Counted from the stretch's first letter, positions 3,165 through 31,700 are shown. The stretch: DNA of 38,381 bases from Rhizaria sp. SCN 62-66 (GCA_001724265.1 MEDY01000061.1:62001-100381); one strand, 5' to 3'. Notes: generated by a model from the letters alone, not told the origin. Program-made: numbers and translations.

Positions 3165-3196
<32 letters not shown>

Positions 3197-3814: not shown

Positions 3815-3845
<31 letters not shown>

Positions 3846-7440: not shown

Positions 7441-10400
7441 TCACTCACTGCTACTCTCAGCCTCCTCACCTAGCACCGCCGCAACTTGCAGCTGCTGCTG
7501 CAGCAGACCGAGCGCCTTGCTCTCCCGCCGCTTCGCGCCGACCTTGTGCGCCGCCACCGCCAGCTGCCGCACATGCCCAGGGCCGGCGCCGCAGCAGCCC
7601 CCTAGCACGTCGACGCCCCAGTCGGTGCCCCAGCGCTCCGCCAGCGCGGCGAACGCCGACGCCGCCTCGCCAGCGGTCGCCGCAGTGCGCGTCTTGTGCA
7701 GCAAGGACGTCAGAGGCGCGGCGGCGCGGCGGGCCTCGGTGGAGGTCACCACGATCGTCTGTGTGTAGTCGTCATTACCGCTGCCTTCACTCGATACAGC
7801 TGTGCTTTGGGCAGTCGCAGAGTTCGCATTCATCGCACTCATGTTCGCTGTAGAGTTAGGGTTCGAAGGGTGAGTGTTATTGGCGCTGCTGGTGTTGTTG
7901 TTATTGTTGCGGGTGATATACGTATACGAGCAAATGGCATCTTCGTCGTATGGGATATGGATGTAAGTGCCCGCAGTGTTGTAAGTGTACGTCGTACTCG
8001 CGCTCGTTGCGTTGGTGCTGTAACTAACAGAGCTAGATTCTCTGTCGTTGATCTTCACGTGGTCACTGCCACTGCACTCGTGCTCAGAAACGCTTACATG
8101 GGTAAGTGGAGGGGGAATGTACGCGTCGGCAACGGCGCCCCCGGGGCCGAACGGAGAAAGGCCAAAGGGCACTTGCCACGACTGAGACAGCGACTGGGCC
8201 TGGGGTTGCGGAGACTGCGAATGCGACTGCAACTGAGACTGCGTGAACTTGGCACCGGGGTTCACATTGGCACTCGTCTGAGAACTCGTGCCCGCGTCGT
8301 CAGCCATAGCTTTCGTGACGAGCTCGTGAGCGTCCACAGCCCCGTTCACAGCTGCAGCGCCACTTGTGCCAACGCTGGCACTGTCACTTTCACGCTCACG
8401 AGCTGCACTCGCACTGATGTTGTTGCTGTTGTTGTTGTCGTTGCTCTTGCTAGTAGAGTTGTTGTTGCTCTTATTGGCACTGCTCGCCACACGGCCATTG
8501 CTGTTGTTATTGTTGTTGTTGTTGTTGTTAGTGTCAACGTCGAGCCAGTGCGGGTGTGAGACAAGTGGCGATGCGGGCGACGTCGACTTATGGGGGCGGT
8601 AAATGCCCGACGAACCCTTAGATCCGTCCGAGTGCCCCTTAGACCCGTCAGCGTGGCGAGATGAACTTTTGCCCCTGACACCGTTGTTACTCTCGCTTCT
8701 AGCGCTTGAGTTGGCGTTGTCATTAGCACGTACAGAAGAGCTAGCATTCTTGCTGTTGTTCTTCGCATTATTCGAGTCCAGGTGCGAGTCTTGATTACTG
8801 GACTCGGAAGACTTTGCACTCGCAGTGTTGTTGATGCTACAGACAGTGTTCGAAGCAGGCTGTCCCTCAGCAACAGGGTTCGAACCTAGAGTGAGGATGA
8901 TAAGACAGTTTGTAAAGAGACATGTGTGAGCCAGGAGAAAAAAAGTATGATCTGGTAAACAATTTCAATTAAATAAATCAAATATAGCAATTTCAGATTC
9001 TCGCCTTGAAACTGCCACTGGCTCCCGGTCAAATGTAAGGTCGCATTGTCATCCAAAGTGAAAGAATTGCCTGCAACCGCAGTAAGCTTCAAAACACCCG
9101 TTGCGGGTCTAAAATGGGCACCATTAAGCTTTGAGCTGAATGAATTTACATGTTTAATGTCATTAAACGCACCTAACTTCGACGGTAACTGTGTCTGCGC
9201 CTGTGCCTGTGGTCGTGACTGTAACCGCTGCGACTGCGGCGTCTGCGAGTGCGCGTGCGCGTGTGCATGTGGGTGTGCATGCGCGTGTGCATGTGAGTAC
9301 GACGGCGCGTGCGACAGCAGCGGCAGCTTCGCGTACGCGCCGATGGGCCGCTTCGTAATCTTCCGCAGCAGCGGCAGCGCAGCTGTGACGGCCGTCGGTG
9401 AAGAGCAGTTGAACAAGTACCCATCGACGAACCGCGGCAGCGAATTGAGCAGACGGTCAACGGCCTGGGCCAGTGTTTCGCACGAGTACAGGCGGGGCAC
9501 GCCGTAGTCGGTGTCGTTGAGGCGGAACGACACCCAGACCGGGATGGGGACCGCGGTGGTACCTGTGCGGGTACTCGTGCCGCCCACGGTCACTTGCTGT
9601 GGGTTTGCGCTGGCAGTCGCACTGGCAGTAACATCGACACCAGTGTTAGCGTCACTGCTGCTCTTGTTCAAGGTTTTATTATCGCTGGCTTTGGCCTTGT
9701 TGACGACGCTGTTGACGGTCATGGCCGCGAGCGCCGTGAGCTCGGCCTGCTGAATGCCGTGACTCGACTCGCACAGGAACGCGTCGCACCAGGGCGCCAA
9801 AGACACGGCGACGAGCTCCAGCCACAGACGCTGCACCGTCTCTTCGCTGACGCTGGCGTCCGAGGACGCGTCTAAAGGGGACTTGGGGGGATACCTAGTA
9901 GACGCTGCCGGGGGCGTCGCTGTCAGAGTGTCGTGTCTGAGGAGGTCGGCAGGGTGGGTCTCGGCGTAAGAATCAGTCGCGTTCGCGATTGTAGAACTGA
10001 TCGCACTATCGCAGCTCGCAGAATCACCGCTAGTGCTTGAGTTGTGGCTAGGAGTGCACAGAAGCGTGTGTTCTGCTAAGAGCTGCTGGTAGAAGAAAAC
10101 AAGAACTGCATCACTCTCACTCAGCCCCACATTGACACGCTCACGTGCATTCGCACTTGCACTCGTGCCACTACTGTCAGTGTCATGGCTACCACTGCTG
10201 TTAGTCGCGCTGGCAAGCACGGCGCTGTTGTAGTTGGTCACCGCAGTCGCCAAAGCCGCGGCAGCCGTCGCTGGAAGCGGGGCGACGTAGCCGACGACGT
10301 AGACGCCGTGGTTCTTGAGTATCATGTGCGCGTACCGGGCCAGCTCGGGCCGCTTTTCGCTCAGCTCGAGCAACGCCTTGCGCAGCAAGTTGTCCTCGCG

Positions 10401-12392
10401 GAAGGACTTAAGCCTAGCCGCCTCCTCTTTGAGCGTAGCCTCCTCTTCGGCAGCAGCGTCAGCGTGGTTGCTCTTGCCTTTCTTGGCGTTACTACCGCTG
10501 CTAAGATTAGCGTTTAAGGTACTAAGAGCGAGTGCTGTCTCGGTGTCATGCTGCTGCACGTATTGGCGCACGAATGTTAGGGCTTCGTCGGCGCATCTAA
10601 GAGCCTGCGCGCGCGCCTGATAAGCCGCCTCTCCAGTCTGTGAGATCATCGCGCTCAGCGTGGTACTTAGATCGGGGGATGTAAGTACACCGCCGTTGTC
10701 GTGGCAACGAAGCATCGATGCTGCAGTTGTAAGCGCGCTCCTGCCCTCTGTAAGTACCTCGACTAAGTACTCTGGCTGGACTGACAAATTCATCGTCGTC
10801 AGGACGTCTGCGCCCGAGGCTAAGTAGGCCAAGTGCGCATCCCGGAGGATGTAAGGGGGCGGCACGCGCTCCCCACTGCTGCTGCTGCTGCTGTCACCAC
10901 TGTAAGGGGCACTTAGATGCTGGTCAGTGAAAAGAGACGTCAGTGGCAGCGGCGGCTGGTGGTGGTGGTGACTATGACTGTGCGCAGTTGCAGCGGCGGC
11001 GGCAGCGGAGGAGATATTAGAGCTAATACTGTTGTTAGCGTTGATGCCGAACAGACTGTTCATCGCTGCACTGCCGTTGATCAAGGGGCTCGCGTTGTTG
11101 TTGTTCGTCGTGTTGCAGTTGTTAATGCAGCCACCAGTGCTGCTGCTCTGAGCCGGGGCATACGTGAAGTTCGGGATTGTAAGGGGCAAAGGAGACAGCG
11201 GGGGCAAGTCGTCGCTTGAGCTGCCCGAGAGATCCTCGTCGTAAGCGTCGGACACCCCCTTAGACGTCGCCTCACGAGAGCCGACACCGCCGCCGAGAGT
11301 GATGAGACCCAGCGCGGCCTTGGCTTCGTCGTTCAGACTGAGAACACCCTCGGAGCTGAGTGTAAGTACCTCGGTCAAGGGCCCGTCGAGCACTAAGGGC
11401 CGCAAGTCGGTGAAAGGGAAGCCACCAATCGCCGTTTCACCACCCACTGAACCAGCGCCAGAACCAACTACATTCCCAGCACTTAGGTTGGCACCCGTGT
11501 CACTCGTGACGCCCTTGTTGCTGTAGTTAATGTAGCCTGAGCGGAACGCTTGCAGGCGGGCTTCGGGGCTGGCCAAGCGTTGCGACGGCAGCGGCAGGGA
11601 CGCGTCGAGCAGAGAAGTTAGGCCGCCACCGGTGCTGCTACCCGTGAGCGCGTACGGGGCACCAACCCCACCAGAAGTGAAGCCGCCTGCAGTCGCAGTG
11701 CCAACGCTGTTAGTCGCCGTGCCCGACGAAAGAAGAGTCAGGATGAACGGAGACAGGTTGCCACCGCTGCTCAGGCCACCAACGCCACCGCCGCCGCCGC
11801 CGCCGCTGTTGATGTTGTTGTTGCTGTTGCTGCTGCTGTGGTTGATAAAGTCAAAGCGGCTGTGTTGCGCAGTCACGACGTCGAAGTGGCCACCGCCACT
11901 GTGGTGCGGCGCTGCTGCGGCGGCGGCTGCGGCGGCGTTGGCGGCCGCGACGGCGGCGGCGGCGGCGGCGGCCGTGACCGTCCCGGGGTGGCTGCTGCTC
12001 GAGGGCACGGTCACGGAGGGCTTTTTGCGCAGCATCGCGCTCACGCCGGCGCCGTGGTTGTTGGTGGAAGCCGAGCCGCCGCCGCTGCGGTGCGGGCTGA
12101 AGTACCGAGCAGGCTGCTGTGAGAGCACTGGCAACAGGGTGCCAAAGCTCGAGCTAAAGCTTGAGCGAAAGCTAGAGTGCAGCGATGCATGTTGCTGAGT
12201 CAGATCGCAATAAGCTTGCGTCTGCGCAGCGTATGCAGGCATAGCCACAGTTGCCACACTGCTTGCAAACGCATGTGCAGTCGCAAATGCCGTCGAAGTC
12301 GCAGTAGCTGTCGCAAGCGCAGCGGCTGTAGTCCGTTGCGTTGCTGCAGCGACACACCGTGTCGTTAACACGCGTGACCGTGCGCCCCACAT
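7441..12392 (-). CDS. Homocysteine S-methyltransferase-family protein, ~1554 aa, heavily expanded, with a putative mitochondrial presequence
   Basis: Exons 12392-9173 and 8885-7441; intron 9172-8886 (GTGCGT...CTAG) joins the two in frame. HMT motifs appear in order: LVLDG, AHLAYLASGADVLTT, LAPWCDAFLCES, PVWVSF, YLFNCSSP, IGAYA, VLGGCCGAGPGHV. The Zn-ligand cysteines are retained. Confidence 0.8.
9248..9295 (-). repeat. Purine-pyrimidine alternating repeat encoding HAHAHAHPHAHAHAH in the HMT protein
   Basis: gtgcgcgtgcgcgtgtgcatgtgggtgtgcatgcgcgtgtgcatgtga on the + strand; His-Ala repeat in the ORF translation. Confidence 0.85.
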
Positions 12393-12940
12393 GTCGGTAC
12401 CGCGATGTCACACTCACAAAAGTGTGGGGAGGCGTTAGTCAGCTATTCCGATGACAGTCTAGGCGAAAGAATTGTCGTCTTCAAGCTGTGCAGATCCGGA
12501 TCTGCTTGACCAGCATTCAAAGCAGAACAGCGCAATTAAAACCATAATCTGTAAGATATTATTTAGAGATCAAATAATAAACACCGTATTAAATCCACCA
12601 ATCCAAGTGCAGATCATATTTACGTTGCTGTCATGCGCAATCAACATCGTCTGCATTCGTCTCTCGGCCGACAATCAAATCTCGCTTGCAGTGTCGCTGC
12701 AGCCACAAACGTTCTTCAATCCCAACAAAACAGAGTTTATGCAAGCATAATCAAGAGACATAAAGCTTAATATAAAATATGTTGTATTTCAGTAACATCT
12801 CTAATCAATCGTATCATATATCTTCATAAGTCCTCCATCAAACACGACAACGGCAACTCTAAAAAACAAAATTGGCCTTCAGTAAACACGTCACTCCAGA
12901 TTTCTCACTTTGTCAGCGAAGCAGATCACACCAAGGCTGC

Positions 12941-15714
12941 TCAGTTATCGCGGAGACGGATGAACATCCGCTTGAGCATGCGCGCCTCGTAGGCCACCGT
13001 GCGCTGCGCCTTGCTCACGGTGCCGGCGAGCGCTCTCTCAGCCCGGCCGGCGAGCGCGGCCTCCGCGCCTACGGCGCTCGCGTTGTAGCTGCTGCTAGAG
13101 CCCGCGGAGCCAGAGCCCGAGGCGGCGCCCTCGGCGTCGTCGGAGCCGCCCAGTGCAGCGCAGATGGCGCCGCCGGCGGCCTCGCACGCGGTGAGGAAGT
13201 TGATGACGTCAGCAAAGAACGAGTCCTTCATGACGAGCATCTGCTTTGCCACGGTCTCTGCCAGCGCCAGGAAGCACCGCTTCGAGTGGAACCACGTCTC
13301 TGCGCTGAGTTTCTTGGATTGGGGCTCGAGCGCCTTCATCACGCGCTCAATGCCGAACTCGAAGTTGCCCTTGGAGCAGTAGAGCGTGCCGATGACGATG
13401 TTGACGATGCACAGATGGTACGACTGTGCGCCGTTGTTGAGCGCAGCATGGCGCTCCTCGGCGCGGTCGATCTGCCGCATGAGCTCCGCCGCCACGTCGT
13501 TCTGCGAGGTCATGATGTACGCCACGCACAGGTTCGCCAGCACGATCGCTGTGACGTTGAGGATGTCGGTCTCGCCGCCCTCCAAGTGGCGCCGCACGAA
13601 GGGCTCGTAGTAGCGGATGGCGTCGTGGTACTTGTCGCTCTGCATGAAGAACACGTGCGCCACGTTCAGCTTCCACGTCTCGTGGTCAGAGCAGAACTCG
13701 GCGGACTGGCGGAACACGCGCTCAGCCATGCTGTAGTTGCCGCGGTCCCAGTAGATGCGCGCCTATAGTAGAGTTAGTTATAAAAGAGAGATATAGAATA
13801 AAAAGTTGTGAGATTTTTGTTTGAAGTGTGATATATCTCTCATTTTCACATTTTTAAAATGAAAACAAATTGTTATTTGAATAATTGGCATAATAACCCT
13901 CAATATAGTCGTTGAATTCTGAATGAAACAGATCTTCTAATTGAAATCTTTGTTTTAGCGATGACGTACCTGTCCCATGAGGACGGGGATGTACTGGTCG
14001 AGCGCGGCGTCATACGCCGCCACCGCGGCCTTGATGAGCTCATCCGACCGGGCGAGACGGGCATCCTGGATGGCCTTTGTGCGTTTGCGCAGGACGTCGA
14101 CGTGGCGCGTGGCGAGCTGGTCCAGCGAGCGGTACGCCTCAGCCTGCGCCTGTTCACTGCCATCGCCTTCGACGAGCGCGCTGAGGTACTCGAACATGTC
14201 CTGGCTCAACACGCCGCCCGCGCTCAGCCCGCCGCCGTCGGCCGCGGCGGAGTCGGAGGCGTAGTCGGCGAGCACGTCGGCCGCCAGGTCCGTCACGCGG
14301 TGCTTGATGTAGAGCAAGACCAGGTTCGCCAGCGTCTCCGGCGGCCGCGGCGGGTTGCGCAACAGGTGCTGGAGCTTGCGGAACCCGCCTGAGGGATCGG
14401 TGGCCATGTTCGCCAGCGCGGTGTTGTGCAGTGTAACGTGGTCGAGCTCCTCCTCAAGCCGGGGCGGCATCTCACGCAGCGCCTCGCGCGCCGCCTCGGT
14501 GTTGTTTAGCGTCAGCTCCACGGCGGCCTTGAGGTTGAAGGCCTCCAGCAAACAGGTCTCGCGCAGCGCCTGCGAGTTGCCGACGGAGCGCACGTCGCCG
14601 TCCTCGAGCGCGCTGCCCACAGAGAGCTCGGGGTGTTCGCGTACACCGCGCTCGATGATGTCGCCGCAACCCTTGAGCGCCAGCGCCCACGAGCCCTGCT
14701 TGTAGTGGCACAGCGCGATGTTGTACAGCAGGTCAGGCTGCTGGCCGAGGAGACCCGCGGCCGTGGTGAAGCCCTGGCGCGCGGCGTCGTAGTTGCCCTC
14801 CTTGTACTGCACGGCAGATGTCGCCACGAGGGTCTCGGCCGTGTCGGAGGGGAGCAGGGAGATAAAGGTCTTTGTGCCCGCGATGTCGTCTTGTGCGTAA
14901 CGAATCGCAGCTATATATATGTATATAACGCGTCGTAATTGAAAATAAAATAGAAATAATTGTAAGATAAATGAGTGGGGTATCTTATATCTTAATTTGA
15001 TAGCGAAATGATTTTGTTAAGTCGGTCAAATGTTCAGTTTGAGAAGTTTCACTGTGAAGTGCATCTCTATTTTAGTCGACGCCTCTCTTTGATGTGGCGA
15101 TGTGGCTGAAGCGTACCTTGAAGCTGGATCATGCGCTGAGCGTACTGCGGGTCGGTAACGGTACTCGCGACCTTGTGTGCCTCGTCGTGCATGCCGGCGT
15201 TGAAGAGGGACTGAGCCCAGTGCACCGAGTACTCGGAGACGTGGGGGCACAGGGTCACGAGCTGCTCGTAGTGCTCGGACGCGGACACGAAATCCTAGAA
15301 TTCGCAGCAATTCACAACGACAACAAAGCAAAAGCAAGTGCAACCAGTGCCAAGAAAAGTAAGACAAGTGAGAATGAAAGAACGATACAAAGTTTGTTTA
15401 ACGGACGAAGATCAAGGTCTGAGACTGCGAAACGCAAGAATGACACAAAATAGTCACCAAAGAGTACCATTGAAACACGATTAGCTTTTTAATGTGCTAT
15501 ATAGCCGTACCTGGATGTAATAGTAGCAGTAGGCGAGGAGCGAGAGCGCGGCGCGCGACCCCGGGTGCGCCTGCAGCTGGTGGTGCAGAGCACGGATGGC
15601 GTCTCCATAGCGTTGGTCGGCGATAAGTCCGTAAACGTACTGCGTCGTGGAGGACGAAGAGGCCGAGGCCGAGGCGGAGGGGCGCATCATCGTGCGGTTC
15701 ATCATCGTGGCCAT
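12941..15714 (-). CDS. TTC30: Intraflagellar transport protein IFT70 (TTC30/fleer/DYF-1), ~714 aa
   Basis: Exons 15714-15511, 15294-15117, 14910-13970 and 13762-12941; all donors GTACG, frame consistent. Motifs SRAALSLLAYCYY, IIERGVREHPEL, EAFNLKAA, MPPRLEEELDHVTLHN, WKLNVAHVFFMQ, YHLCIVNIVIGTLYCSKGNFEFGI. Confidence 0.95.
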
Positions 15715-16831: not shown

Positions 16832-19800
16832 TTAGACAATGTCGATGTCATCGTCCTTCTCCTGAATACCGTCGTCCTTCATATTGCGCGGGAACTTCTG
16901 CAGCAGCCGCTTGAGCTTGGACTTTGAGAACTGGAACACGACAGACCGGCGGATCGGCACGTCGTCGCCGAGCGGGTCGTAGCTGATCTTGTGGCAGTGG
17001 CAGTCATCCGACGCCAGCGCCTTCATTGACACGAGCATCGAGCGCAGGATGACGAGGTTCTTGGTCGTGACGCCAGTCTGGTACGACAACTTCATGTGCA
17101 CCAAGTCCGGGTCCGCCGTCGTCAGAAGCACGAAGTGCACGTTGGACAGGAACTTGATCAGCCGCCCCTCGTCCTCGTCGACGCAGTGCATCACAGCCAG
17201 TGCGTTGAGACAGCCGAACGTGACGCACTGGAGGTACTTGCGCAGCGGCTTGACGCGGTACAGGATGCCCTTAGACGTGAGTTCCTCGTATGAGAAGCGG
17301 ACCACCTTGCCACGCTCGCGGACGACGTGTACCTTGTCCCACCGGTGCATGCGCTCGGAAAACCGCTTCAGTGCGCGCTGATCGGTGTTCTTATTGGCGA
17401 GCCCGAAGTTGGACTCGAGGTACTTGCTGTCGACCACCGTCGACGACGTGATGCTCTCGAAATTGCGCGACATCGCCTGCGTGGCCGCCGGCAAGTGCTT
17501 CAGCTCGTGGTCGACGGCGCGCTTGATGGTATCGAGCGCGGCGACCTTGCGCTGCTCCTCATCCATGTAGTGGCGCTTCTTGGTATCGCGCTCCGAGAGC
17601 TTCTCGCGCAGCAGCAGAGGCTCTACCGACGACGCGTCAGCGACGAACGACACGAGGTCGTGGCGCTCACCCAGCTCCACCTTGGTGCCTTTGAACACGC
17701 GGATCAGGCGCTTGAACGCGTAGGCCGCGATCTCATAGTCATGGCCGCCCTCTTGCTCCGAGTACTCGTCGATGCGGCGCTCGCGCCAAGCCTTGAGCTC
17801 GACCATGATGGCATGCCAGGCGGACTCGCCGTTGAGCTCTTCGAGAATGATGTTGAAGCTGGGCTCGACGAGAATGTCGTACATGAGATCGCACTCGAGT
17901 TTGTTGAACGTGAGCGTGATGTCCTTGCGGCCGTCGCCGGCGCCACTGCTGGTCATTGCGCTCGAGCTGGAGCTGGAGCCCCCGCCGCCGCTGTTGCTCG
18001 TGCCGCCCGAGTTTGTGCTCGCCGAGCGCGGGTGCATGCAGCGGCAGATTTCGCACGCGTCCTCGGCCGACTTGCGGCGCAGCTCGTAGTCGCAGCGCGT
18101 GGTGTCGAGCCGCAGGTTGACGCGCATCCAGTCGTGCCAGTCCTGTTCTTCGTGCTTGGACCGGTAGCCGAGGTCCTTCATCACCTTGCGCATGTCCTGC
18201 GTCGAGCAGAAGTCGCGCGAGCGGCACAGCAGCGGCAGCGATGAGCGAGGCACTTGGAGAATGCGGCGGGGGAAAAAGAACGGCATCTTGAGGAAGTGCG
18301 TCAGCAGGTCGAGCTGCATCTGCTTGTAGGTCGACGACTCGCCCTTGGACTCGTGGTACTCAGTCTCCGAGACGTGGTCAGCGATGCGCTCGAGGACCGA
18401 GTGGTTCATATTCTGCAGGACGCCGCTCGCGCTGCCGCCGCCGCCAGAGCCACCGGAGGCGTTGTTCATGTTGCCCAGCGCGGCCGCGGCGGCGGCGGCG
18501 GCGGCGGCGGCGGACGACATGTCGGCGCCGCCGTTGCTGCCGTTGCTCGTGCCGTTGTCACTCTGCTTCATGACGTAGTCGGGGATCTTGTAGCGGCCCG
18601 TGACGTAGAGCATCAAGTCCGTCACGTCGTCCGCGGTCAGCTCGGCGCCAACGTCACGCAGCTGCAGCAGCACCAGTGTCTCAGAAGGGCCGATCTGCGA
18701 GGCGCCCGAGCAGACGAGTGCGTCCATCGAGTTGGCAGTGTTCCAGCCGCGGCCGCCGCGCAAACGCAGGTTGTTCGGGTCCTCCAGAGGGTCGACCTCG
18801 GCGTTGACGTCCGTGTCAGCCTCCTATAGACGACAAGCAAAAGTTGGAACAAAAATTGTTGAGAAAAAAAAAGTAAGTTGATTGTGATATGATTAAAACA
18901 TTCAACAAGTGAAATTGACACAAATCGATATCAATATCAGTAAATAGTTTTTAACTTCGTCAATTGAAAGTCTAGAAAGCGTACCTGGAGTCCGAAACCG
19001 CGGCGCTGGAGCTGGCGGCGCTTGACCTCGAACTGGTACGTCTGGTCAGCTAGCATCACCTCGGCGAGAATGCGCATCACGACGCGGCCAATCACGTCCG
19101 AGGGATCGATCTTGTTGCGGCGCAGCGCGGAGCAGAGGACGACGAGTGGCCACTGCATGATGGACATGAGCTGGCTGAAGATCTGCTCGCTCTCGATGAT
19201 GCCCAGCAGCTGGTCGGCCTTGTGGCGGACCAGGCGGAAGGCTGTCACGACCGAGGACGGGGTCTTGTCCTGGAGGTACTTGTCAAGCCAGTCGACCGGC
19301 GTGACCTGTGGTTAATGTAACAACAATAAGCAAGGAGTGAAAAGTGAGTGAAGTAATCACGAAACTAAAGTAAAACAAAGTACAATACATAAATACACAC
19401 TGAAATAAATTGTCTCCAAATTAAGTCCGATAGTGGTCTCAATGTCACATGTTCATTTTGATACGTACGCAAGTGACTGTGCGGTCGTTCGAGGGCGCAA
19501 AGGGGGTCAACTCAGCCAGAGCCTTGGCCAAAAGGTCGGACAGCTGGCGGCGGATCTTTCCGTGAAGGAAAATGTCGCGGAAAACAGTCCACTCGATGCT
19601 GTCTTCGGTCAAAATGCTCTGCTTGGTCTTACCACGCGTGCTGTACTCGAGCATAAGCCGCAGGAACACGTGGAACACGCGGATATCTTCGTCGCGGTGC
19701 AGGTCGTAGATCGAAAAGACGAGATTGCTAAACCGATTGCGCAGACAGTTGGCCTTCTCGACCGTCTTGACGGACTTGGTCTTATCGCCGTCATCTTCCT

Positions 19801-22800
19801 CCTCTTCGTCGGCCTTGTTGCTGTTCTTGCCCTTGCGCTGCTGGCGCGGCGCCGCGTCCTGGCCGAAAAACACCGCCGACACGGCCGAGGAGTACAGCTG
19901 GTAGGACCGGAACATCAGACACGGCTGCATGTACAGGCGTGACACCAGGAGCTCGGCCGGGTTAAGTAGGTCACGCTCGAACGAGACCTTCTTGTTGAGG
20001 AGTTTCTCCTCGAGGAAGCCCTCCATGTTGTCGTCGACGTCACCGCGCGACTCGACGTCCACGTCCAGCTCCCAGTCGTCGGGACCTACAAATGATCATG
20101 TTCAAGCAAGTGCGCAAACAATGCGAACGAAGAGAAGTGAAAAATGGAACATGTAAGAAAAGCACTATCAGTGAGGATATAAACACATATGTAGCTAAAA
20201 TAGTAAACAACTATAAAAACACTAAGTCTCACAGAGAAATATATCAATTATATATACTCTGGCACTTTTGGCGATTTAGCGGTTTACGTACCGGGGAAGC
20301 AGCAGCAGACGAGCGCGCCGGTGTCGGGCCGATCCATGGGCACGTTAAGCTTGTGCCCATCTGCGTGGTACACGACCTTGGACTGCGCCTGCGTCCCAGC
20401 CGCCGTGTCTGACGTCTTGCGGCGCTCGCTCTCACCACCTTCACGCATCTTGATCTGGCGCCGCTCTTCGTTCGTCTCGCGGATGCGTTGCTGCGAGGTG
20501 ATCGAGTCGACGGCGTGCTGCGACTGGTCGACGCGCCGCGTGATTGCGGTGTGGATCAGCTCGATCTGCTCCAGAGCGGCCTTGAGGTGCTCGTGCTTGT
20601 GGATCTTGAAGTTGCGCGTGAAGGCAGCGCGCAGCAGACGGCTCTTCTTGGCCAAGTCAGCGGCCTCAGTACCTAAAGAAAAAACCGCCAAAAACATTAA
20701 GAGAAGATAAATAAAGGCGTTAGCGATTGACAGAAATCACAATATATAAGTATATAGAACGTGTTATCAATGCATCGAGTAGTGCCTGCGTGGCAGTCTT
20801 GCTATATAGTGTTTAAACAGTGCGTTTTCGCGAAACAACAATGGACTTGGTGAAGACATGATGAATATCACTTTACGACGAAGAGTTATTTGTTTAAGTG
20901 CTGTGGTTCAACGTACCTTCGACGTCGGTCTGTTGCTGCTTCTCCTCCTGCTGCTGCTTGACGCGGCGGCGCAGCACGCGCGCCATCTGACGCTCAGCCT
21001 TGTGGAAGATCGGAATGACCTTTGGCTCAGCCTAAAGAGCGCAAAGAGGGAAGAATCAAAATAAAAGAAAAGCTTTGTGTGAGTCTAAAGTACACTTAAA
21101 CGACACTTTTGAAAACAAAGCTAACACAACATATGTAACAGGGCACAATTCTCTTAAATAATACATTGTAGAACAAACTCATTTCATCCTAGCGAGATAT
21201 CGACGCTTTTGTTAACGTCAACATACCTCTGACTTATTCGCGCCGCTGCGGCCATCGCCGGTGCCGAGGCCGAGACGGCCGGAGTCACCATAACCCCACA
21301 CGTACGCCTCGCCCTCGTCGGTGCACAGCGCGTTGTGGTCGGCCATCGCGGCGATCTGGCGGATGCGGAGCGTGCGGAACGACTTGAGCAGCTCGGGCTG
21401 AACCACGGTCAGCGTCTCCTGTTTCTGCTCCTCGGCGGCCAAGGCGGCGGCGGACGAGTTGGCGGCGTCCTGCTCGGCGCCCGCGGACCGCTGCTGCTGC
21501 TCCAGCGCCTTCTCGGCCATGTGTTTGGCGACGTTGCCGACGCCGAGCTTGCCGTATTGCGTTTCGCCCCATCCAAAAAGCACGGGTGCGCGGCCGTGGT
21601 TGGCCTTTTCATTGTACCGGCAGAGCAAAAAGTGGTGGGAGCGGGCCGTGATCACCTTGAGGACCTTAAAATCGTTAATGGGCAGGTCGGAGGCCAGCTC
21701 GCGACGCAGGTCTTCGCCGTTGTTGAGCTTTTCGATGTACGTCGGCAGCGGGTTCGGGTCTTGGTTCAGGCCTAAGGAAAAAGTAAGCAAGAAACAAAAA
21801 TGAATATTATATATCGCGCATGTGTGAGTAAATGGAGCCTTACATCTAAACATTAATTTTTAATATCGAAGACATTGTAAACGTACCAGGCAGGACACCC
21901 CAGGTGTAGATGACTTCGATATCACTCGAGTTGGATACCGCAATGGTGGCCTTGTCACTTGCGGCGATCAAGTGCACCTTAGGCAGCATCTTGGTCGTCG
22001 CCGCGCCGCCGTTGCCCTTGCCCGAGGAGCCCGTATTGACGCCCTTGTCCTTGTTCTCACGGTTGAACTTCACGTCGTCCATGTGCAAGTCCCAGTCGTC
22101 AACGAGCACGGGTGTCGCGTACGTCAGCTGCGCGTTAGCGTACCGACCCAGCTGCCCATGCTTGCCCATGCCGCACGTGTACACGCGCGCGTCAATCACC
22201 TTCTTGCCGCGCACTTCGAACCGCTCGACGAGGATCGCTGTGTGGGTCGTGCCCAGCGCCAGTGAAACGCGCTCGCGCTGGACGGAGGCGCCCGTGCGCG
22301 GGATCGCGCTCGGCAGGCGCAGCGGCTTGGGGAAAGAGAAAAAGTTCGGGTAGCACGGGAACACGCCTGGGAATAGAGTTGGATCAATAACAAAAAGCGG
22401 TCGTTATATTTAATTAAAAAAAGGGGGGGGGGGTTGTTAGAGTTAGTATGAAATAGCGTGAAAGGTGTGAAAATATTAATTATTTTGTGGGGTTTTGATT
22501 AGCAGAGAACGTACCGGGCTCGTCTTCAGTGCCGACGCCGAGCTGTCCGTACTGGTGGTCGCCCCACACGTAGACGTCGTCGCGGCCGAGGCCGCCGTGG
22601 GTGTCGGTAGTGGCGACCGCGGCGACGTGCGACCAGCCGGCCACCAGGGAGGTGATGTAAGTACCTGCGGGGGGTGTAGGTGCCAGAGCAAGGGGGGAAG
22701 CATGCGATATGTTAAAGCGTGAGCCTCAGAGAATGTTACATGCACGATGACACGTTCAAACAACATCTAGCGTTAACTGCGGTCTGAACCACTTGATACA

Positions 22801-25121
22801 AGTGCAATATAACGCATTATGAAATGAACTTTCTTTGTTTTAAAGATAAAAATATTAATATACGTACCCTGGAGGGCCTTGACGACCTCCGGCTTGAAGC
22901 GAGAGACGGTATCGCCGAGACCCAGCTGACCGCGCTCGTTGCCACCCCTGTAGCAGTAAAACGACGAAATTGCGAGTATATACACGACGATGAGAGCATA
23001 TCAAAACAAAACTGAAATATCTCGTACAATATATAAAATGACATGCATAATAATTGAACTCATATTAAGACCATGGAGTTGCTGAAGCAATATATTACAA
23101 TTGCGTACCAAGCGAAGATGGTGCCGTGGTCAGAGAGGCACATCGAGAAGTTGCTACCGCACACGATGGCAGTGATGATGGTCGACGACGGCGTGGGCAG
23201 CGGCACCGGAATGGGCCGCGCCGACTGCGGCATCTTACCGACACCCATCTGGCCCTGTGCGTTGCTACCCCAGGCCAGGATCACATTGCGGTTACTCTCG
23301 ATGGAGAGTGCGAGCGTGTGGCGCTCACCGCAGGCCACCATGCGCGCTTTATAGTCGTCCTGCTTCACTTCCAGGTCCTTGATCTCGCTCGCCATCGAGC
23401 AGATGCGCTTGTCGTCGAAGAAGTCAAGCCGCGTCGGCACAGGGGCGCTGCCGGAGTCGGTGTGGATGCCGAGGCGCATGCCGCTCGTGCAACCCCACGC
23501 GTAGACCTGGGATAATTAATAACGAAAATTGAAGGCATATATGTGAGTCATTTAAAATAAAATAGACACACGTGTAAATAACTGAGTTATGTGTGATAAA
23601 ATCATTTTTAGCTGCATGTCATAGCATCTTGTGTTAAATAAATGTTTGGGCACTTAAAGTAAATCATTTCGCCTTCGCAAAGCTATTTTGGCTGTTATTG
23701 CTACTTGACGTACACGGTTGTCGAGCGAGATGGCGACGGTGTGGTGCTGCCCCGCGACGGCGCGAATCGCCCTCTGGGGCTTCTTGAATAGCTCCACAGG
23801 CGTCGGCGACAGCCGGTTGGCGGTGTCTCCGTGTCCGAGCTTGCCGTACTTGCCGCCGCCCCAGGTGTAGAGCGAGTAGTCGTCGCTGTCGGGCAGGACG
23901 AGTGCGAGCGAGTGGAAGCTGTTGCAGCTGACGTTAAGCACGCGGATGTTCTTCAAGTCGCCCTCGACGACCGTGGGCGTCTGGACGTCGATCTCCGTGC
24001 CAAGCCCGAGGCGGCCGTAGGCGCCGGAGCCCCAGGCGAAGACGGTGCCCTCTGCGGTCAGCGCCAGGTTGTGGCTGTCACCGGAGGCGATCTGCACGAT
24101 CTTCTGATCTTCGGAGAGCACGAGAGACTTGATCAGCGTGGGCGACTTGCAGTCGGCCTCGTTGCCGTGGCCGAGACGGCCGTTCTTGCCCTTGCCCCAG
24201 GACCACACCGCGCCGTCCGCGCACAGTGCAAGCGAGTGCTCCGTGCCGCAAGAGACCATGATGATCTTGGACGTCGCGCGGACCTAAAAAAGAGAGGGAG
24301 GGGGGCGCACATTGAGAACAAAAGTTCAAGAGTTAGGAATGAGCACAAAGATAAACTCGTTTCGACACAGAACGACGCAGGCCATAAGATTATTGAAGAA
24401 TACATCTAACAGTACAAGGGAATATTACTGAACTGATATCATTTAAGTCAAATCACACTTTGTTTGTGCGTACCTGTGTGACGGGGTCAAAGAGACGGAA
24501 CCCAATGGGCTCGGGGTTGGAGATGGAAGTATAGCCGCGTCCCCAAGCATAGATGGTGTTGCCATCCTCGGTAATCGCGAGAGACGAGTCGGCGCCGCAG
24601 GTGACGTAGCCGATGCGGTCCACGTTGGGGAACTTGATCTGGCCGTGAACACGGTGACTGTAGAGTAGAATAGCATAACATAAGCGACCCAATGTGAGTT
24701 CATATAGAAGCGCGAGATAAAGTTGTGTTGATATGAAACAGGTGAATTTAGATGTTTTTGCGTGACATTTCATTTCATTTGAACAATAAAATACTAACTA
24801 AACATTTTTGTGCTCAAGAGTTGTTACGTACTGTCCGAGGCGTCCGTCGTCCTGGCAGCCAGTCGAGTACACCATGCCGTCTGCGAGGATGATCGTGTGG
24901 CCAGAACCAACTGCAACCTGCACGGACTCGGGCCGCTTGATCGGGGGCAGATTGAAGTTGATCGGCGCTGCCTGGTACTCTGAGAAGGTGCCATGGCCGA
25001 GCTCGCCCTGCTTACCGAGGCCGAAACCGTAGACCTGGCCGTCATCAGAGACGAGAACTGTATGCACCCAGCCGCACGCGACGCGCGTCGAGAGGAACTT
25101 GCGGAACAGGTCGCGGTTCAT
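16832..25121 (-). CDS. RCC1-repeat protein with an IQGAP-like (RasGAP-related) C-terminal half, ~2040 aa, 13 exons
   Basis: Exons 25121-24832, 24657-24474, 24283-23714, 23506-23109, 22947-22868, 22664-22515, 22366-21887, 21771-21227, 21031-20917, 20672-20292, 20085-19469, 19305-18985 and 18823-16832 total 6123 nt with an open frame across all 12 GT-AG introns. The first ~900 aa carry many RCC1 repeats (VACGxxHT...VYxWGxxxxGxLG). The C-terminal assignment is less certain (see findings). Confidence 0.85.
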
Positions 25122-26411
25122 CCTCACAGGGGAACGCTAGAGACAACGACAAAAGGGGTCGGCTCGAGTTGCTTAGAAGGGAGAGCGAGAGGGCGACAAG
25201 ATAGTTTTGGGGGTGAAAAGAGGCAAGCGGAGCCTTTGCTTGGGAGGGCAAAAACGACGCCTGGCAAAAACGCGAGTGTGCGTTTAAGGGATGAGAAGGT
25301 GTGATGCGCGCTTTGGTAAGAAAACGCTGTCTTGGAGTAAGATAAAGAAGCAAGGGAGCCGTTCGAGATAAGGTTGGCGAGGGGGCGGCAGGGAAACAGT
25401 TGGTTGGGCGACAACAGGAGAGATGCAAGAGTGAGATAAATGACGCGGTTGAGCGGATATCAAAAGCTGAAAGAAAAAGACACGCAGGGGTACATCTAAT
25501 GAAGCGCATTCGTCGAAGAAGAAGTGGAGATACGGAGCATGGCATGTATGATAAAGGGCGAGAGGGTTGGGTGCGACGAGGGCGAAGCGGCGATGGCAAA
25601 AGAAGCATAGTTCGCGGGCATTTCATCGCTATCAGGGCCAAAATAAACGTATAACATGCACAAGAAGCGGAAACCATGCGAAGTTCAAATTATCCTTCAC
25701 CACTATGACGCTAGCTACCGCCAATGAGCTTTCTCGATCGTCAAAGGAGGAGAACTTCGCCGACTGCCAGCAGCGACAGCTGACGCATTTTTAGGAACCG
25801 TGTCTCGAGCGGCCTGGTTGAATGCGGATTTAGATAGCTTTCTAGCTGATAACCCTAACCATGTCAAACAACTCTCGGATATGTAATATAACCCAATGTT
25901 TCTTGTGTTTTTTAGGAAGAATATGCTGTCTAAAGTTCATTTTACTGATCTCTATTGACAGTTTTGGGAGAGACACAAATGGCAACAGCGATACGTTCTT
26001 CGAGATACGAAGGTATATGAAGAGGAAAGATCAATCAAGCCCACGTATCGTATAATATGTAATAGTTTAAATAATATGGCGCAGTTTCACCTCTCATGGC
26101 AAATATTTTGTCTTCAAATCAACTTGTTTTTTAATCTGACCACAAACTCCGTTTGAGTCAAAGCAGCGGGATGCGCGAATCTTTCATTCTATCTATCACC
26201 GTCAATTCTTCGTTATTGCTACTGTAAGTGGTGATAAACTGAAAGACCGTTTATTTTCTAACTGTTCTTAAAGTTTAGTTTTAAATGGGCAATGATATCA
26301 CGCCTAACCTACCATGCTGTTGTTTGCTCACTTCACTGTGTGTTTCGTCTTGCACTGTTATCGCTGCTTTGTATAGACAACCCCCGGTTGGTACAGCCCT
26401 CAAGCCCTTTC

Positions 26412-28682
26412 ATGGACCCCTCCACGCCGCGCGCAGCCCAGCGCGAACCGACGGGAGGTACCCTTCGTCCTCCGGACCCCCCACCACCGGATACAGGGCC
26501 TAATAGCTCTGGTACCAACACCAACACCAACCCGGTCACTAGCTCTGACACAACAAACCTCTCTGTCTCTGCTGCAATCAGTCCCAGCAGCAAAGACTAC
26601 AAGGCGGGCGCCCCGAACGGCGTTAAGAGCAAGAGTGGCGGCGGAAACGCGAACGACGGCAAGCACGGCTTCGAGCTCGAGCTGCAACCAGTCGCGTCAG
26701 CCTCTTCTGCCTCTGCTTCTGCTGCTGCATCTGCCTCATGTTTAAGCTCTAACCCTAGCTCTAGCTCTAATGCTAGCGCAGGCCCTTACATGGACCCTAG
26801 CTTTAGCCTTGGCTTGAGCAACAACCCCTTAAACGTTGCAACAGCAACTCCCAGCTACAGCAACAGCAACAGCAAAGTTGCTGCGACTGTTGATGCAACG
26901 AACAACAACACCGCTGGCTCTAGCGCTGCTTCTGCTGCTGCTGATCATAATCGCAACAACACTGCAAGCGATAGCCCTAACAACAACAATCGCAACACCT
27001 CTGTCTCTGTTCCTGTCTCCTCTTTTGTCGCTAATCCTGTCTCTCCTAATGTCCCTGTTTCTTCGTCTGTCTCTCCTAATGTCCCTGTTTCTTCGTCTGT
27101 CTCTGCTTCTGCTTCTGCCTCTGCTTTCGACACCAACCTTGTCTCTGTTCCTGCTTCTTCGTTATCTGTCTCTGCTTCTGCCTCTGTCTCTGCCCTGAAC
27201 CTTACTCCCAACAACAACAACAAGTCAAGCCGCACACGGCTCACAGTCACTTACACCAACCTCTCCCTCGACGTCCCTACCAACAACAACAACAACAACA
27301 ACAACACCAGCAACACGCAATGCGCGGACAACGGCGCGAACGTAAACACGGAGCATTATAGCACCATCTTCACTCCTCTCACCTCTCTGTGCCACCGCGT
27401 CTTTAGTCCTAAGCAAAACAGCTTGAACACGGGTGACCACGGTCACAATGCGGCCTTCTCTCGCATCGCCAACGCGACGGGGGTACTTACACCTGGCACC
27501 CTTACACTCGTGCTCGCTCCTCCTGGCCACGGCAAGTCGACGCTACTTAAAATTCTAAGTGGGCGCTTAGAGCCTTCGAGCGGCACAGTGCTCTACAACG
27601 GCCTCACCAAAAGTCAGGCCGCCGAGAACGGAACTCAAGCCGCGCCGAAGCAAACTCAAGCCGCAGGAGCATCACTCGCATCAACAACAGCAGCAGCAAC
27701 AACAACAACAAGGACCTTTCCACTTTCTGCAGTGGGCTGTAATATCAGCCGCATGGCACAGTACTGTGCGCAAGTTGATGAGCACTTGCCACTACTTACA
27801 GTCAAGGAAACCCTTACATTCGCCCACAAAGTCACCTCAACATCAACAACAACAACAACAACAACAACTCACGCACAGGGGGCTAAGCACCCCTTAAACG
27901 GCCCCTTAGACGACGGCAGCGACGGCGACGACAAGGTCGCGGTTGTGATAGAGCTGCTTGGGCTGACCGAGTGCGAAGACACCATCATCGGCAACGCTCT
28001 GATCCGCGGCATCAGCGGCGGTCAGCGCCGCCGCGTGACCCTGGGCGAGTGCCTGGTCACCGACGCCTGCGCGCTGTTCCTCGACGAGTTCACCAACGGG
28101 CTGGACGCCGCCACGGCGTTCGCCCTCACCCAGCGGCTGCGGCGGCGGGCCGTGGACAGTGGGGGACTGGTTGTGGCGGCACTGCAGCAGCCGACGCCGG
28201 AGGTCTTCGCGCTGTTCGACAGCGTTATCGTGCTGAAAGAGGGTGAGGTTGTGTTCAACGGGGAGCGGGCGCTTCTGGAGCCGTTTTTCGCGTCGATGGG
28301 GTATCTGTGTCCGAGCGATGTTGACTTATGTGACTTTATCATCGACTGCGTGTCGCAGCCGGCACTTACCCTCCAGCGCTGCGCCAATCTAAGTACACTA
28401 TGTACTCAGAACAACAGTGACATGAGAAACAACAGCGGCAGCAACAACAACAGTAGCAACAGCAACAATAACAACTGCAGTCGTGATGTGATCATGAGGA
28501 CGCCGACTGTTCATGTTACTCGTGAGGCAGACGGCTTAACTTACTTCGCGGCGTCACTTTCGCGGCAAGGGAGCGGAGGCTTAACTTCAGATGCGCGCGG
28601 CTTTACCTCTTTTGCTCGCGCAGCGACCCCGTGTGTAAGCACACGTGATATGGTCCAACATTTTCACGCAACGTCACTTTGC

Positions 28683-28756
<74 letters not shown>

Positions 28757-31700
28757 GAGCAGTAAGAGCAGCATTCGCGACGACAGCGGCAACTCTAGTC
28801 GGCTGCAACCAAGTGACTGCGAACAGCAGCAAGCTCATGCCGCCAGCTCTAGCTCTAGATCTAGATCTAGATCTAACTCTTGCTTAAATGTAGATCCGCT
28901 GTTTTATGAGCCGCTGCTGCCGTCAACAGAGTCTGTGGCGAAGTACAGGACCGGCTACTCTTTGCCCATGCACTCGCTGTTTCTTGTTGTGCTGGCGCGT
29001 CAGTGGCTCAACTTCACCCGCAACGGCAGCATCATCGTGCCCCGCCTTGTGCAGGCTGTGGTTATGGGACTGCTGTACGGCTCGATGTTCTGGCAAATCC
29101 CGTCGGACGCATTCTTCCTGCGTACGTCAATTTATATTTTATGTAGCACGTAACGACAGCGAACTCTCTTGAATAGTTTATGTATTTTATATGTATCGCA
29201 TATTCCAACAAAAATATGTCGAGATGTCATGTTATCTTTCTAATTTTATTTCGTCTACTCTCACTTTCCTCTTCGTTCTCGTGCAACCGTGGCTGTTTAG
29301 GCATCGCTGTTCTGCTCATGGCTCAATGTCAAGTCGGTTTCGGCTCCATGGTTGAGCTCACTGCCAGCATTGAGAATAACCACATCATGCTCAAGCAGCT
29401 CAATGCAAGCTGGTACCCGGTGCCACTGTTCGTTCTCGCTGCAGTCGCGGTCGGCATCCCCATTTTCCTCGCAGAAGCTGCGATTTTAACGTTATTCATC
29501 TACTTCATGTCGGGATTTGTGCTTGAAGTCGGGCGGTTCTTTGTGTTTTTCGCAGTGATGGTGCTGTGTTCGCTGATTATGTCGGTTTGGTTCCGTATGA
29601 TTGCAGCCATGAGTCGCGACGAACCAACTGCGCAGGTACGTACTATGATTTAACGACAATCCTCGTCAATCTTGAACTCGACATGCCATTTTATCGAGAT
29701 ATCTCTGTTACTCATTACTATAATGCTGCTGTTTAAGTCCTTTGTCGATACCATCATGTTATCACTTACGCGTTTCGACTTTCCTTTGTTATATGACTCC
29801 TCTCATAGGCGATTTCGAGTCCGACAACGTGCGTGTTCATCATTTTCGGCGGTTTCTTCGTCACCCCGCCCAACATCCCTGTCTGGCTGCGCTGGTTTTC
29901 TTATCTTTCCCCGTACTCGTGGTCGGTACGCGCGCTCGCCAACAACGAGTTTTTGTCCCCCCGTTACTCCGCAATCTCGGACACCGGTGAGACGCTGGGT
30001 GTAATGTATCTGCGCGCAGTCGACATGCACGTGGGCCAAGAGTGGATTGGTTACGGTGTGCTATTCTTGCTCGGGTTCACGTTGTTTTGCATCGTGGGCA
30101 ACTCGGTCCTGCTGCAGCGGCAGACGGCCTATGAGGCGCATCGGGGCACGGCACGCGCGGTTACTCGTGCTGCTCACGGTCACGCGCAAGCAGGCAAGCC
30201 AGCGTTCGTGTTTGTCTCTGATTTATCTCCGTATGTCACCTCGACGCTAACTGCAAGCGCGAACAGCGACGCTCATGCTAAGGCTAGCAGCGGCGTTGGT
30301 GGCAACGCGAAGGCTCAAGCTAGCAGCGGCGTCGATGTGAGTGCTGATGCGAGTGCTGACGTCGCTGCTGGTCATGATGAGACTTGCGGCGACAAGGATG
30401 GCAATGCTTCAAGAAGACTTGATGACAACAGTGACATTCTGAAGACCTTGCGCGAAGTTATCCCTTTCACCCCGCAATGGCTGACCTTCACGGACCTCTA
30501 CTACACTGTTCCAGTCACAACGACGCAACCAAAGCCACAGCTAGAGTCACAGCAACAGCAACAGTCCCAGTCACCTCAGGTTCAACCCCAGTCAAAGCCC
30601 CAGTCAAGCTCGCAGTCAAATTCGCAGCCACCACAGGCAAGCACACAATCGTCTTCAATCGCCATCCCGATCAACGAGCGCGTATCCGCCCAAAGCGCTC
30701 TCTTAAATCAGGACTTGGGCGGTGTCGACAGCAAGGTTTTGCTGTGCGGTGTGAGTGGATACGCCGAGCCGGGTACACTGACAGCGCTGATGGGAGCCTC
30801 TGGCGCGGGCAAAACAACTCTGCTTGACGTGTTGGCGGGCAGGAAAACGGTCGGCACTGTCGCTGGCGAGATCAAACTCAATGGCCGCCTCCTCACCCTC
30901 TACGGCAACAGCAACGATAACAGAGACAACACAAACATGAACATGAACGTGACTAACGCCAGCTCTATCTCTATTGCGAACAAAAACGACGCTGCTGCTG
31001 ATAACTCGAGCACTAGTATGACTTCGAGCAGTAGTAGCCACGTCGCTGCTCACGCGAACATGACTGCGAGCAAGAGTGATTTAGCGGTTGTCACTGGCTA
31101 CGTAGAGCAAAACGAGACCTTACTCGCGACAGACAGCGTCCGTGAAACGTTACTCTTTGCCGCCAAGCTACGTCTCTTGCCCTCCATGCAGAGCAGCAGC
31201 AGCAACAACAGCAGCAGTCATCTAAGTACCCCCCTAGACGACGTCATCGACCGTGTCGTCGACGAAGTGCTCGACGTGCTCGAACTGACCGCAATCCAGC
31301 ACAAACTCGTCGGCTCCCCCGCGACCACGGGTACCAGCGGTTCTCTCGCCATCCAGGGCCTGTCTCCCTCGCAGCTGAAGCGTGTCAACATCGGGCTCGA
31401 ACTCGTGACGAACCCTGCCATTCTGTTCCTCGACGAGCCCACCACGGGCCTCGACTCCCGCGCCGCGCAGACCGTCATGCGCGTCGTGCGCCGTATTGCG
31501 CGCTCCGGCCGGTCCGTTATCTGCACCATCCATCAGCCGTCGGCCGAGCTGTTCTATCTCTTTGACCGGCTCGTGCTGTTGGCGCCCGGAGGAAAGCAAG
31601 TCTACTTTGGCAATCTGGGTCAGAGGTCTAAGGGGCTGGTGGGGTACTTAGAGCGCGTTCCTGGTGTTGAGAAAGTTAGGCCGCGGCATAACCCTGCGAC

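Follow-up and report, generated by a model that had tools for sequence, protein, structure and literature searches.

The window analyzed here is a stretch of 38381 nucleotides (nt) of DNA from Rhizaria sp. SCN 62-66 (MEDY01000061.1:62001-100381), and the gene under study occupies positions 16832-25121 on its minus strand, to which all the gene features described below belong. It encodes a protein of 2040 residues in which two RCC1-like β-propellers precede a C-terminal half predicted to combine the fold of GTPase-activating proteins for Ras (RasGAP) with the C-terminal (CT) domain of the IQGAP family. The gene model, built from GT-AG sites, is a single open frame running from the ATG at 25121 to the stop at 16832. 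Its 13 exons (25121-24832, 24657-24474, 24283-23714, 23506-23109, 22947-22868, 22664-22515, 22366-21887, 21771-21227, 21031-20917, 20672-20292, 20085-19469, 19305-18985 and 18823-16832) are separated by 12 AT-rich GT-AG introns of 115-244 nt with a GC fraction of 0.29-0.41.

The splicing pattern was followed in RNA-type contigs from three runs, X1 and X2 representing one sample and X3 a second study; X1 and X2 were flagged as possibly DNA, yet their splice joints are clean. Eight of the 12 introns (1, 3, 4, 5, 7, 8, 9 and 12) are exactly skipped in these contigs, and introns 2, 6, 10 and 11 are bridged by none of the listed RNA contigs, which at such depth proves nothing. In one contig (X2, record 10), exon 8, the last of those with RCC1 repeats, continues into exons 9 and 10. 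Intron 10 (20291-20086), the step into the GAP-like exon, is supported by intronless homologs rather than by RNA: the homolog L002 (6667 nt) gives one uninterrupted match to residues 1-2033 in a single frame (82% identity), and L005, an intronless open reading frame (ORF) of 1986 residues on a 164.9-kb contig, covers residues 13-2040. No second copy of the C-terminal half was found in the genome searched. Since both homologs match the whole protein without introns, the fusion between the RCC1 and C-terminal halves is secure, and the gene is real. A preliminary description made from the window sequence had proposed this 2040-residue gene and its fusion, and all the peptides that it quoted are found in the translation. 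The single transcript that it expected across 21226-20086 was confirmed by RNA for the junctions of exons 8, 9 and 10, the remaining step over intron 10 being bridged by the homologs only.

In the N-terminal half, Pfam RCC1 matches above the cut-off were obtained on exons 1-8 (eight of the 13 exons). A pattern scan detected 13 blade motifs between residues 30 and 782, a further match at residue 1449 being spurious, and a fourteenth blade near residue 874 was recognized by eye and from the Pfam match on exon 8. Fourteen RCC1 blades correspond to two propellers, as had been roughly estimated before, and two propellers are observed in the AlphaFold2 model of this half, which depicts the homolog L002 (19 sequences; pLDDT, the predicted score of the local distance difference test, 80) and not the window's own protein. 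Propeller 1 (residues ~12-385; 23396-25088) is composed of seven blades defined by Pfam, the blade motifs and the homolog model, and propeller 2 (residues ~400-905; 21014-23353), defined by Pfam and the model, of seven blades with long insertions. Upon superimposition, propeller 1 (model residues 12-382) matched UVR8 with a Z-score of 48.2 (root-mean-square deviation, rmsd, 2.4 Å, 350 residues aligned), and propeller 2 (model residues 419-889) matched Kti13 with a Z-score of 30.3 (rmsd 3.1 Å, 310 aligned). The nearest structures to propeller 1 are UVR8 and the RCC1-like domains (RLDs) of HERC2 (Z 44-48, 30-31% identity), RCC1 itself reaching Z 41 at 25-26% identity. The seven-bladed propeller is common to UVR8, the HERC2 RLDs, RPGR, RCC1 and RCC2 (Z 36-48); unlike these proteins, the present one carries a tandem pair fused to a pseudo-GAP. 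RCC1 is the guanine nucleotide exchange factor (GEF) of Ran. The earlier wording "GEF-like propellers" found no support beyond this fold, which at most suggests that the propellers might have such an activity.

The C-terminal half was modeled on a close homolog (about 82% identical overall, 952 residues), template-free and from a 46-row alignment (pLDDT 81.1, predicted template modeling score 0.68). The pLDDT values were mostly above 85 in the GAP-related domain (GRD) and in the CT part. The GRD (residues 1098-1599; 18158-19987, by residue mapping from model residues 31-516) is predicted to adopt the RasGAP fold with an extra subdomain, and it is interrupted by low-complexity loops rich in Ala, Gly, Ser and Asn. 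Model residues 31-516 superimposed on residues 961-1339 of IQGAP1 (PDB 3FAY) with a Z-score of 13.4 (rmsd 5.5 Å, 323 aligned), on NF1 (6V65) with a Z-score of 14.4 (rmsd 4.9 Å, 270 aligned) and on 5CJP with a Z-score of 11.8, all at 9-12% identity. At the extreme C-terminus, the CT domain (residues 1875-2031; 16862-17332, by structure match; model residues 795-932) superimposed on that of IQGAP2 (3IEZ) with a Z-score of 10.7 (rmsd 2.4 Å, 90 of 94 residues aligned, 20% identity), and on those of IQGAP3 (3ISU) and IQGAP1 (1X0H) with Z-scores of 9.5 and 7.8, respectively. On the homolog model, both the RasGAP-fold GRD and the terminal CT domain of the IQGAP family are present, in agreement with the fold first proposed for this region.

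When 48,161 chains were searched without bias, ranks one to nine went to chains with the RasGAP fold or the IQGAP CT domain (Z 14.8-8.3), rank ten dropping to 5.8. After re-alignment, such chains occupied the top 17 rows, and the first unrelated chain in the two structure searches appeared at Z 5.7-5.8. Matches of model residues 592-726 to the STAT N-domain and to winged-helix folds (Z 4-5.7) were discarded as generic helical matches. Foldseek gave its top ranks to the IQGAP2 CT and IQGAP1 GRD (E 0.04-0.06). The GRD followed by the CT domain is the IQGAP order, and a likeness of both predicted domains to IQGAP would be hard to get by chance because two domains of different class match one family in its own order.

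Two further elements have a putative place in the predicted layout. According to the accessible part of PMC13299636, RGCt is formed by the helices H3 and HC, and a long helix termed HN lies upstream of the GRD in IQGAPs. In the secondary structure of our model, an RGCt-like region (residues 1680-1836; 17447-17917) consists of a helical bundle and, after it, a helix of 58 residues, a pattern that agrees with the H3 and HC layout in the same source and occurs here without a match to Pfam PF03836. Long helices were also predicted at residues ~912-1020 (20425-20995; helices 887-1015 in the homolog model). A conserved helix, in which one Arg is invariant in 19 of 19 rows, stands at the place of HN in IQGAPs, and we infer that the two are equivalent.

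Several observations weigh against this assignment and have to be set beside it. The models of the C-terminal half depict the homolog and not the window's own spliced protein, and the Z-scores of 12-14 at rmsd 4-6 Å obtained for the GRD are close to the level reached by helical bundles (about 13 according to the warning of the tool). The Foldseek check put forward by the preliminary description did rank IQGAP2 CT and IQGAP1 GRD first, but the E-values are weak overall (0.04-0.12). For RGCt there is no solved structure for comparison, its assignment coming from the helix pattern, and the registers of the finger and FLR residues discussed below rest on weak alignments. Of the Pfam families to be checked, RCC1 was found on exons 1-8 as described above, but neither RasGAP nor RasGAP_C gave an above-cut-off match in the C-terminal half, whether on the 13 exons or on the homologs; the best RasGAP match in the family, in the relative P0030, remained below the cut-off (E 0.035). 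Profile searches of the PDB with the 4-row and 46-row alignments yielded no significant C-half match, and hhalign comparisons with the two halves of the RasGAP encoded in this genome were non-significant (probability 0.1-0.2). With the RGCt and CT part as query, the ESM Atlas returned unrelated clusters below 0.9, its own model of this part being poor (pLDDT 0.35).

In addition, phmmer with P0030 revealed no significant RasGAP or IQGAP link, and a search with the genome's RasGAP returned no full-length RasGAP or IQGAP sequence. A search of the genome with PF03836 gave no match; since the prokaryotic control was likewise silent, this does not establish absence from the genome. The ESM Atlas features pointed, as a lead only, to RasGAP and RasGAP/RasGAP_C clusters (0.83-0.87). 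The back half of the family is thus missed by the standard domain searches (Pfam and PDB sequence searches). From the lack of any significant sequence match, the low identity of the GRD and Foldseek E-values above 0.001, one could argue that the IQGAP likeness is a modeling artefact or a convergence of helical folds, and that the C-terminal half is an unrelated helical region. This is difficult to reconcile with an all-helical GRD and an α/β CT domain that match the same family in the same order, the latter at rmsd 2.4 Å and 20% identity, in a template-free model whose pLDDT is mostly above 85 in both parts, and we consider it very improbable.

Examination of the catalytic positions showed that the canonical RasGAP set is missing. 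The position inferred for the arginine finger is occupied by Thr1224 (19607-19609), in a weak register derived from a non-significant hhalign alignment and from the start positions of the Pfam RasGAP matches on P0030 and on the genome's canonical RasGAP, whose finger Arg is aligned to the IQGAP1 Thr of 3FAY. The IQGAP1 stretch from SVIFTLY to RQILAPVV quoted in the preliminary description, with its finger Thr, is indeed present in 3FAY. However, the reading of this residue as an IQGAP signature was not sustained. Over 24 rows, which include two near-duplicate pairs, the finger column contains Ala in four, Thr, Lys and Arg in three each, Asn and His in two each, and seven singletons. Given the hypervariability of this column among the relatives, Thr can hardly be taken as an IQGAP signature; judging from the alignment, it looks local to this subgroup and its match to the IQGAP Thr looks coincidental.

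The second catalytic element was placed by eye against the alignments at Arg1348 (19072-19074), the probable equivalent of the FLR/YYR Arg, in a helix that reads VMRILAEVML. This FLR-like column holds Arg in 12 and Lys in 9 of 26 rows. The basic residue is therefore retained in 21 of 26 rows, but the remainder of the FLRxxxPAxxxP motif is missing, and the YYRxxxPAxxxP motif is absent as well, neither YY nor PA occurring in any of the 26 rows that span the helix. Furthermore, the helices forming the Ras-binding groove are poorly conserved and represent the least conserved folded part. In model residues 228-300 of the GRD, none of the 73 columns reached at least 70% conservation, against 5 of 23 and 12 of 81 columns in the N-terminal part of the GRD and 23 of 147 in the CT domain; this count was made on 37 of the 46 rows, nine (self, duplicates, short pieces, near relatives and a long branch) having been dropped. 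Because the finger, the FLR..PA motif and the groove conservation are all missing, canonical Ras GAP activity of the window's protein is unlikely and the binding of a GTPase at the GAP groove is doubtful. A GAP-fold domain without the canonical catalytic set, as first described, is what the alignment points to.

The same genome encodes Rac, Ras-like, Ran-like and Rab GTPases (subfamily labels assigned by eye). L028 (G000:C480) is also a small GTPase, resembling by eye what we take to be the Spg1/Tem1 type. One canonical RasGAP was detected (L001/L045; G000:C134, about 35800-41700), with an intact finger and an LLR-type motif. Its best sequence match is the IQGAP1 GRD (E 5e-17), after which come about 1300 mostly low-complexity residues with no Pfam match.

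Three members of the family, P0023, P0031 (GAB5362590.1) and P0034, have Arg in the finger column, in an (I)FRES or LIRED context. These three paralogs share one six-member clade (SH-aLRT 100) in a quick tree of 26 rows of at least 500 residues, which comprises family members only, without IQGAP, GAP1 or NF1. Together with the basic residue of the FLR-like column and the fold of the Ran GEF, they would suit a coupler, in which the propellers act as GEF for one GTPase and a second GTPase is bound or inactivated by the GAP-fold domain, perhaps through non-canonical catalysis; active RasGAPs may persist among the paralogs. A precedent in amoebae is RGBARG of Dictyostelium, a protist protein of about 2000 residues with the order RCC1-RhoGEF-BAR-RasGAP, in which RCC1 is likewise N-terminal to a RasGAP-fold domain (accessible part of PMC7416115). 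In RGBARG, the RasGAP restrains Ras, the protein can do without its RCC1 part, and the GEF function belongs to a distinct RhoGEF domain; no RGCt or CT is named in that part of its description. In our case, neither RhoGEF nor BAR gave a Pfam match on the exons or long homologs, and only about 190 residues separate propeller 2 from the GRD. RGBARG and the present family are likely independent fusions. IQGAP1 in which the Arg was put back did not recover GAP activity, and its high-affinity binding of Cdc42 comes from RGCt rather than from the GRD (accessible part of PMC9408373). In view of that restoration experiment, an Arg alone is weak evidence for activity. As the window's protein has a Thr instead of Arg and lacks PA..P, and as its propeller 1 is nearer to the UVR8 and HERC2 domains than to RCC1, we regard such a coupler as improbable.

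Cysteine-rich segments distinguish the C-terminal half. A hydrophobic, Cys-rich insertion was identified by alignment inside the CT domain (residues ~1908-1924; 17183-17233), all 37 rows containing Cys there and 27 of them two or more; the C827 column is 94% conserved (33 rows). This inserted loop is a new observation here and a candidate membrane anchor, probably S-acylated. Just before the GAP-like domain, a hydrophobic CCC cluster (residues ~1058-1064; 20293-20313) may be another S-acylation site, Cys being also found at this place in P0001-P0004. Finally, a family-specific strand with a CxxCxCxHP segment lies between the GRD and the RGCt-like part (residues 1611-1642; 18029-18124), its Cys pattern being retained in only part of the family.

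The poor conservation of the Ras-facing helices would also be expected for a purely structural, cytoskeletal pseudo-GAP that binds no GTPase, a component of the cercozoan cortex or ciliary base comparable to PCR5 of Toxoplasma. The GRD superimposed with a Z-score of 12.4 (rmsd 5.9 Å, 289 aligned) on one chain, presumably PCR5, of the ring structure 9YA0 from Toxoplasma. In the accessible part of PMC12819142, the GAP domain of PCR5, located in the preconoidal ring, appears sterically blocked, so that a GAP fold apparently without GTPase access exists in another protein of the stramenopile-alveolate-rhizarian lineage. The match is limited to the GRD, no RCC1 is mentioned for PCR5 in that part, and the likeness is structural, homology not being implied. 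The probable restriction of the family to one lineage, with several chlorarachniophyte paralogs, fits this explanation, as does an IFT70 gene adjoining ours in a probably flagellated organism, although this adjacency is no evidence for a common function. However, the family keeps the RGCt-like and CT parts with conserved surface motifs, and in IQGAPs it is these parts that bind GTPases and lipids; the Cys-rich loop also suits a membrane role. We regard a purely structural function as a less likely alternative.

Compared with known systems, the C-terminal half resembles IQGAP1-3 and the Dictyostelium proteins DGAP1, GAPA and IqgD in the order long helix, GRD, RGCt-like part and CT, in the extra subdomain and in the lack of an arginine finger. 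It differs from IQGAPs in that two RCC1 propellers replace the CH, repeat, WW and IQ modules, in that YYR..PA is absent and the Thr is not conserved in the family, in its identity of 10-20% without any Pfam match, and in the Cys segments of the CT domain and of the GRD-RGCt junction. The layout is that of a truncated IQGAP of the DGAP1/GAPA type. No CH domain was matched by Pfam on the 13 exons or on four long homologs, the N-terminal half being modeled as propellers and helices; this domain is also missing from DGAP1/GAPA. A strict IQ pattern was found in 0 of 14 proteins and a loose one in 3 of 14, none being the window's protein. The absence of CH and IQ noted at the outset was thus upheld. 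Because YYR/FLR..PA, CH and IQ are all absent, the protein is not a bona fide IQGAP.

The accessible part of PMC12871552 states that the RasGAP-RGCt architecture is common only to IQGAPs and fungal GAP1/IqgC, the latter having an arginine finger, an (F/L)LR..PA motif and activity on Ras, and IQGAPs having YYR..PA. Since both groups share this architecture, "IQGAP/GAP1-derived" is a safe label. The original term "IQGAP-like" holds for the GRD and CT folds but is too narrow, as GAP1/IqgC have the same architecture and the GRD of NF1 scores as high as that of IQGAP1. Fungal GAP1 and Dictyostelium IqgC are alike in the RasGAP-RGCt-CT order, but they keep the finger and the motif, whereas the family lacks PA and has Arg in three of the 24 rows; no RCC1 repeats are described for them in the same part of that paper. 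IQGAP-type proteins are listed in animals, fungi and protists, with Dictyostelium as an example, and are inferred to date back at least to the last eukaryotic common ancestor (accessible part of PMC13299636). Among the open-access full texts listed by the searches, we came across neither an RCC1-GRD-RGCt-CT protein nor a rhizarian IQGAP. The architecture, initially reported as unfamiliar, appears new in this respect, the combination of RCC1 with RasGAP having a precedent in RGBARG. PMC5455982 and PMC13746701 contain no occurrence of IQGAP, RasGAP or RCC1, and RCC1 is not mentioned in the accessible parts of PMC3141262, PMC4374526 and PMC8305917.

Searching 1.84 billion representatives with a profile, we obtained 46 matches, of which two were profile-building sequences and one (P0006) the window's own exon 11. 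Pfam was run on 36 of the 46, plus two more, the eight omitted being pieces of 52-205 residues. RCC1 was present in 13 of the 36 scanned relatives and in 14 of the 15 matches of at least 1000 residues. Three members without RCC1, P0013, P0041 and P0049, might be stand-alone forms, but truncation is likelier: a cluster mate of P0013 has an open frame further upstream, the start of P0041 falls within the HN-like helix and that of P0049 within the GRD. Ten of the 30 clusters looked up carry an organism name. Eight are from Amorphochlora (three), Bigelowiella (two), Lotharella, Gymnochlora and Paulinella, which we take to be Cercozoa. The other two, P0009 (EukProt Ploeotia vitrea, a euglenid transcriptome) and P0016 (MDO9333948.1, a metagenome-assembled genome of a Dehalococcoidales bacterium), are probably contaminant or misbinned cercozoan sequences because both sit among other family members in the tree. 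The family is probably confined to cercozoans.

The reading that we favor, with slightly better than even confidence, is that of a probably cercozoan-specific, membrane-tethered and non-catalytic scaffold built on an IQGAP/GAP1 chassis, with the twin propellers as its partner-binding N-terminus. The predicted folds and their order come from prediction and structure comparison on the close homolog, and the losses of the finger and of FLR/YYR..PA, with the poor conservation of the groove, from the alignments; the partners, the lipids and the location are all ones that we infer. In such a scaffold, the C-terminal half would derive from that of an ancestral IQGAP/GAP1-type protein (HN helix, RasGAP fold, RGCt and CT), and the two propellers would take the N-terminal place of the CH/IQ modules of animal IQGAPs. 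The protein would not promote GTP hydrolysis on Ras. HN and the HC helix of RGCt could pair as a coiled coil, and the propellers would thereby be turned back in the direction of the CT domain. The Cys-rich loop of CT, and possibly the cluster preceding the GRD, would be S-acylated and hold the protein at a membrane, where the propellers may recruit partners. If the protein binds a small GTPase, such as the Rac encoded in the genome, it would do so like an effector, as IQGAPs do, using RGCt or the extra subdomain and not the GAP site. It is possible, although we propose it only tentatively, that the family forms a third, cercozoan and Pfam-invisible branch of the IQGAP/GAP1 clan, which lost the finger independently of IQGAPs, with Arg persisting in one paralog clade, gained the RCC1 pair as a targeting module, turned CT into an S-acylated anchor and serves as a Rac scaffold of filose or reticulose pseudopodia.

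A Pfam-dark cercozoan family with an IQGAP/GAP1 C-terminal half would place this clan in Rhizaria and would show that domain searches miss some of its members. It would probably represent a second, independent route from GAP to pseudo-GAP, and since Arg-bearing and Arg-less paralogs coexist in sequenced chlorarachniophytes, this transition can be tested. A set of proteins annotated as "RCC1-like domain" or hypothetical could be re-annotated. The protein is also a candidate organizer of rhizarian pseudopodia or ciliary-base structures, the regulators of which are, to our knowledge, little studied.

Elsewhere in the genome, a Met-Ser pair is added ahead of the usual start in four of the eight ubiquitin loci read (L007, L010, L011 and L014). 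Where the reading extended to the end, the gene codes for one monomer whose di-glycine is followed by a short HPQ tail; three of the genes are in tandem on contig C3, two of these three apparently with internal deletions. The Met-Ser start recalls the junction insertion of Rhizaria (accessible part of PMC3014934), although no true junction was seen here, and makes a rhizarian origin of the organism probable.

Directly downstream of the gene studied, in the same direction, lies an IFT70/TTC30 gene (~12944-15713, minus strand; exon 13958-15016 against IFT70, E 3.7e-97). Because of its presence next door, the organism is probably flagellated. Further along, two adjoining long ORFs (7441-12407, minus strand; 507 and 1173 residues, stop to stop) each gave a partial homocysteine S-methyltransferase match and far exceed the usual length of the enzymes of that family. 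On the other side, a PDR/ABCG-type ABC transporter in two long ORFs (26262-32967, plus strand) is divergent from the gene. The window also contains a gene for SNAPc subunit 3 (2389-4446) and an 864-residue ORF with a 3'-phosphoadenosine 5'-phosphosulfate (PAPS) reductase domain (35133-37727), both on the minus strand.

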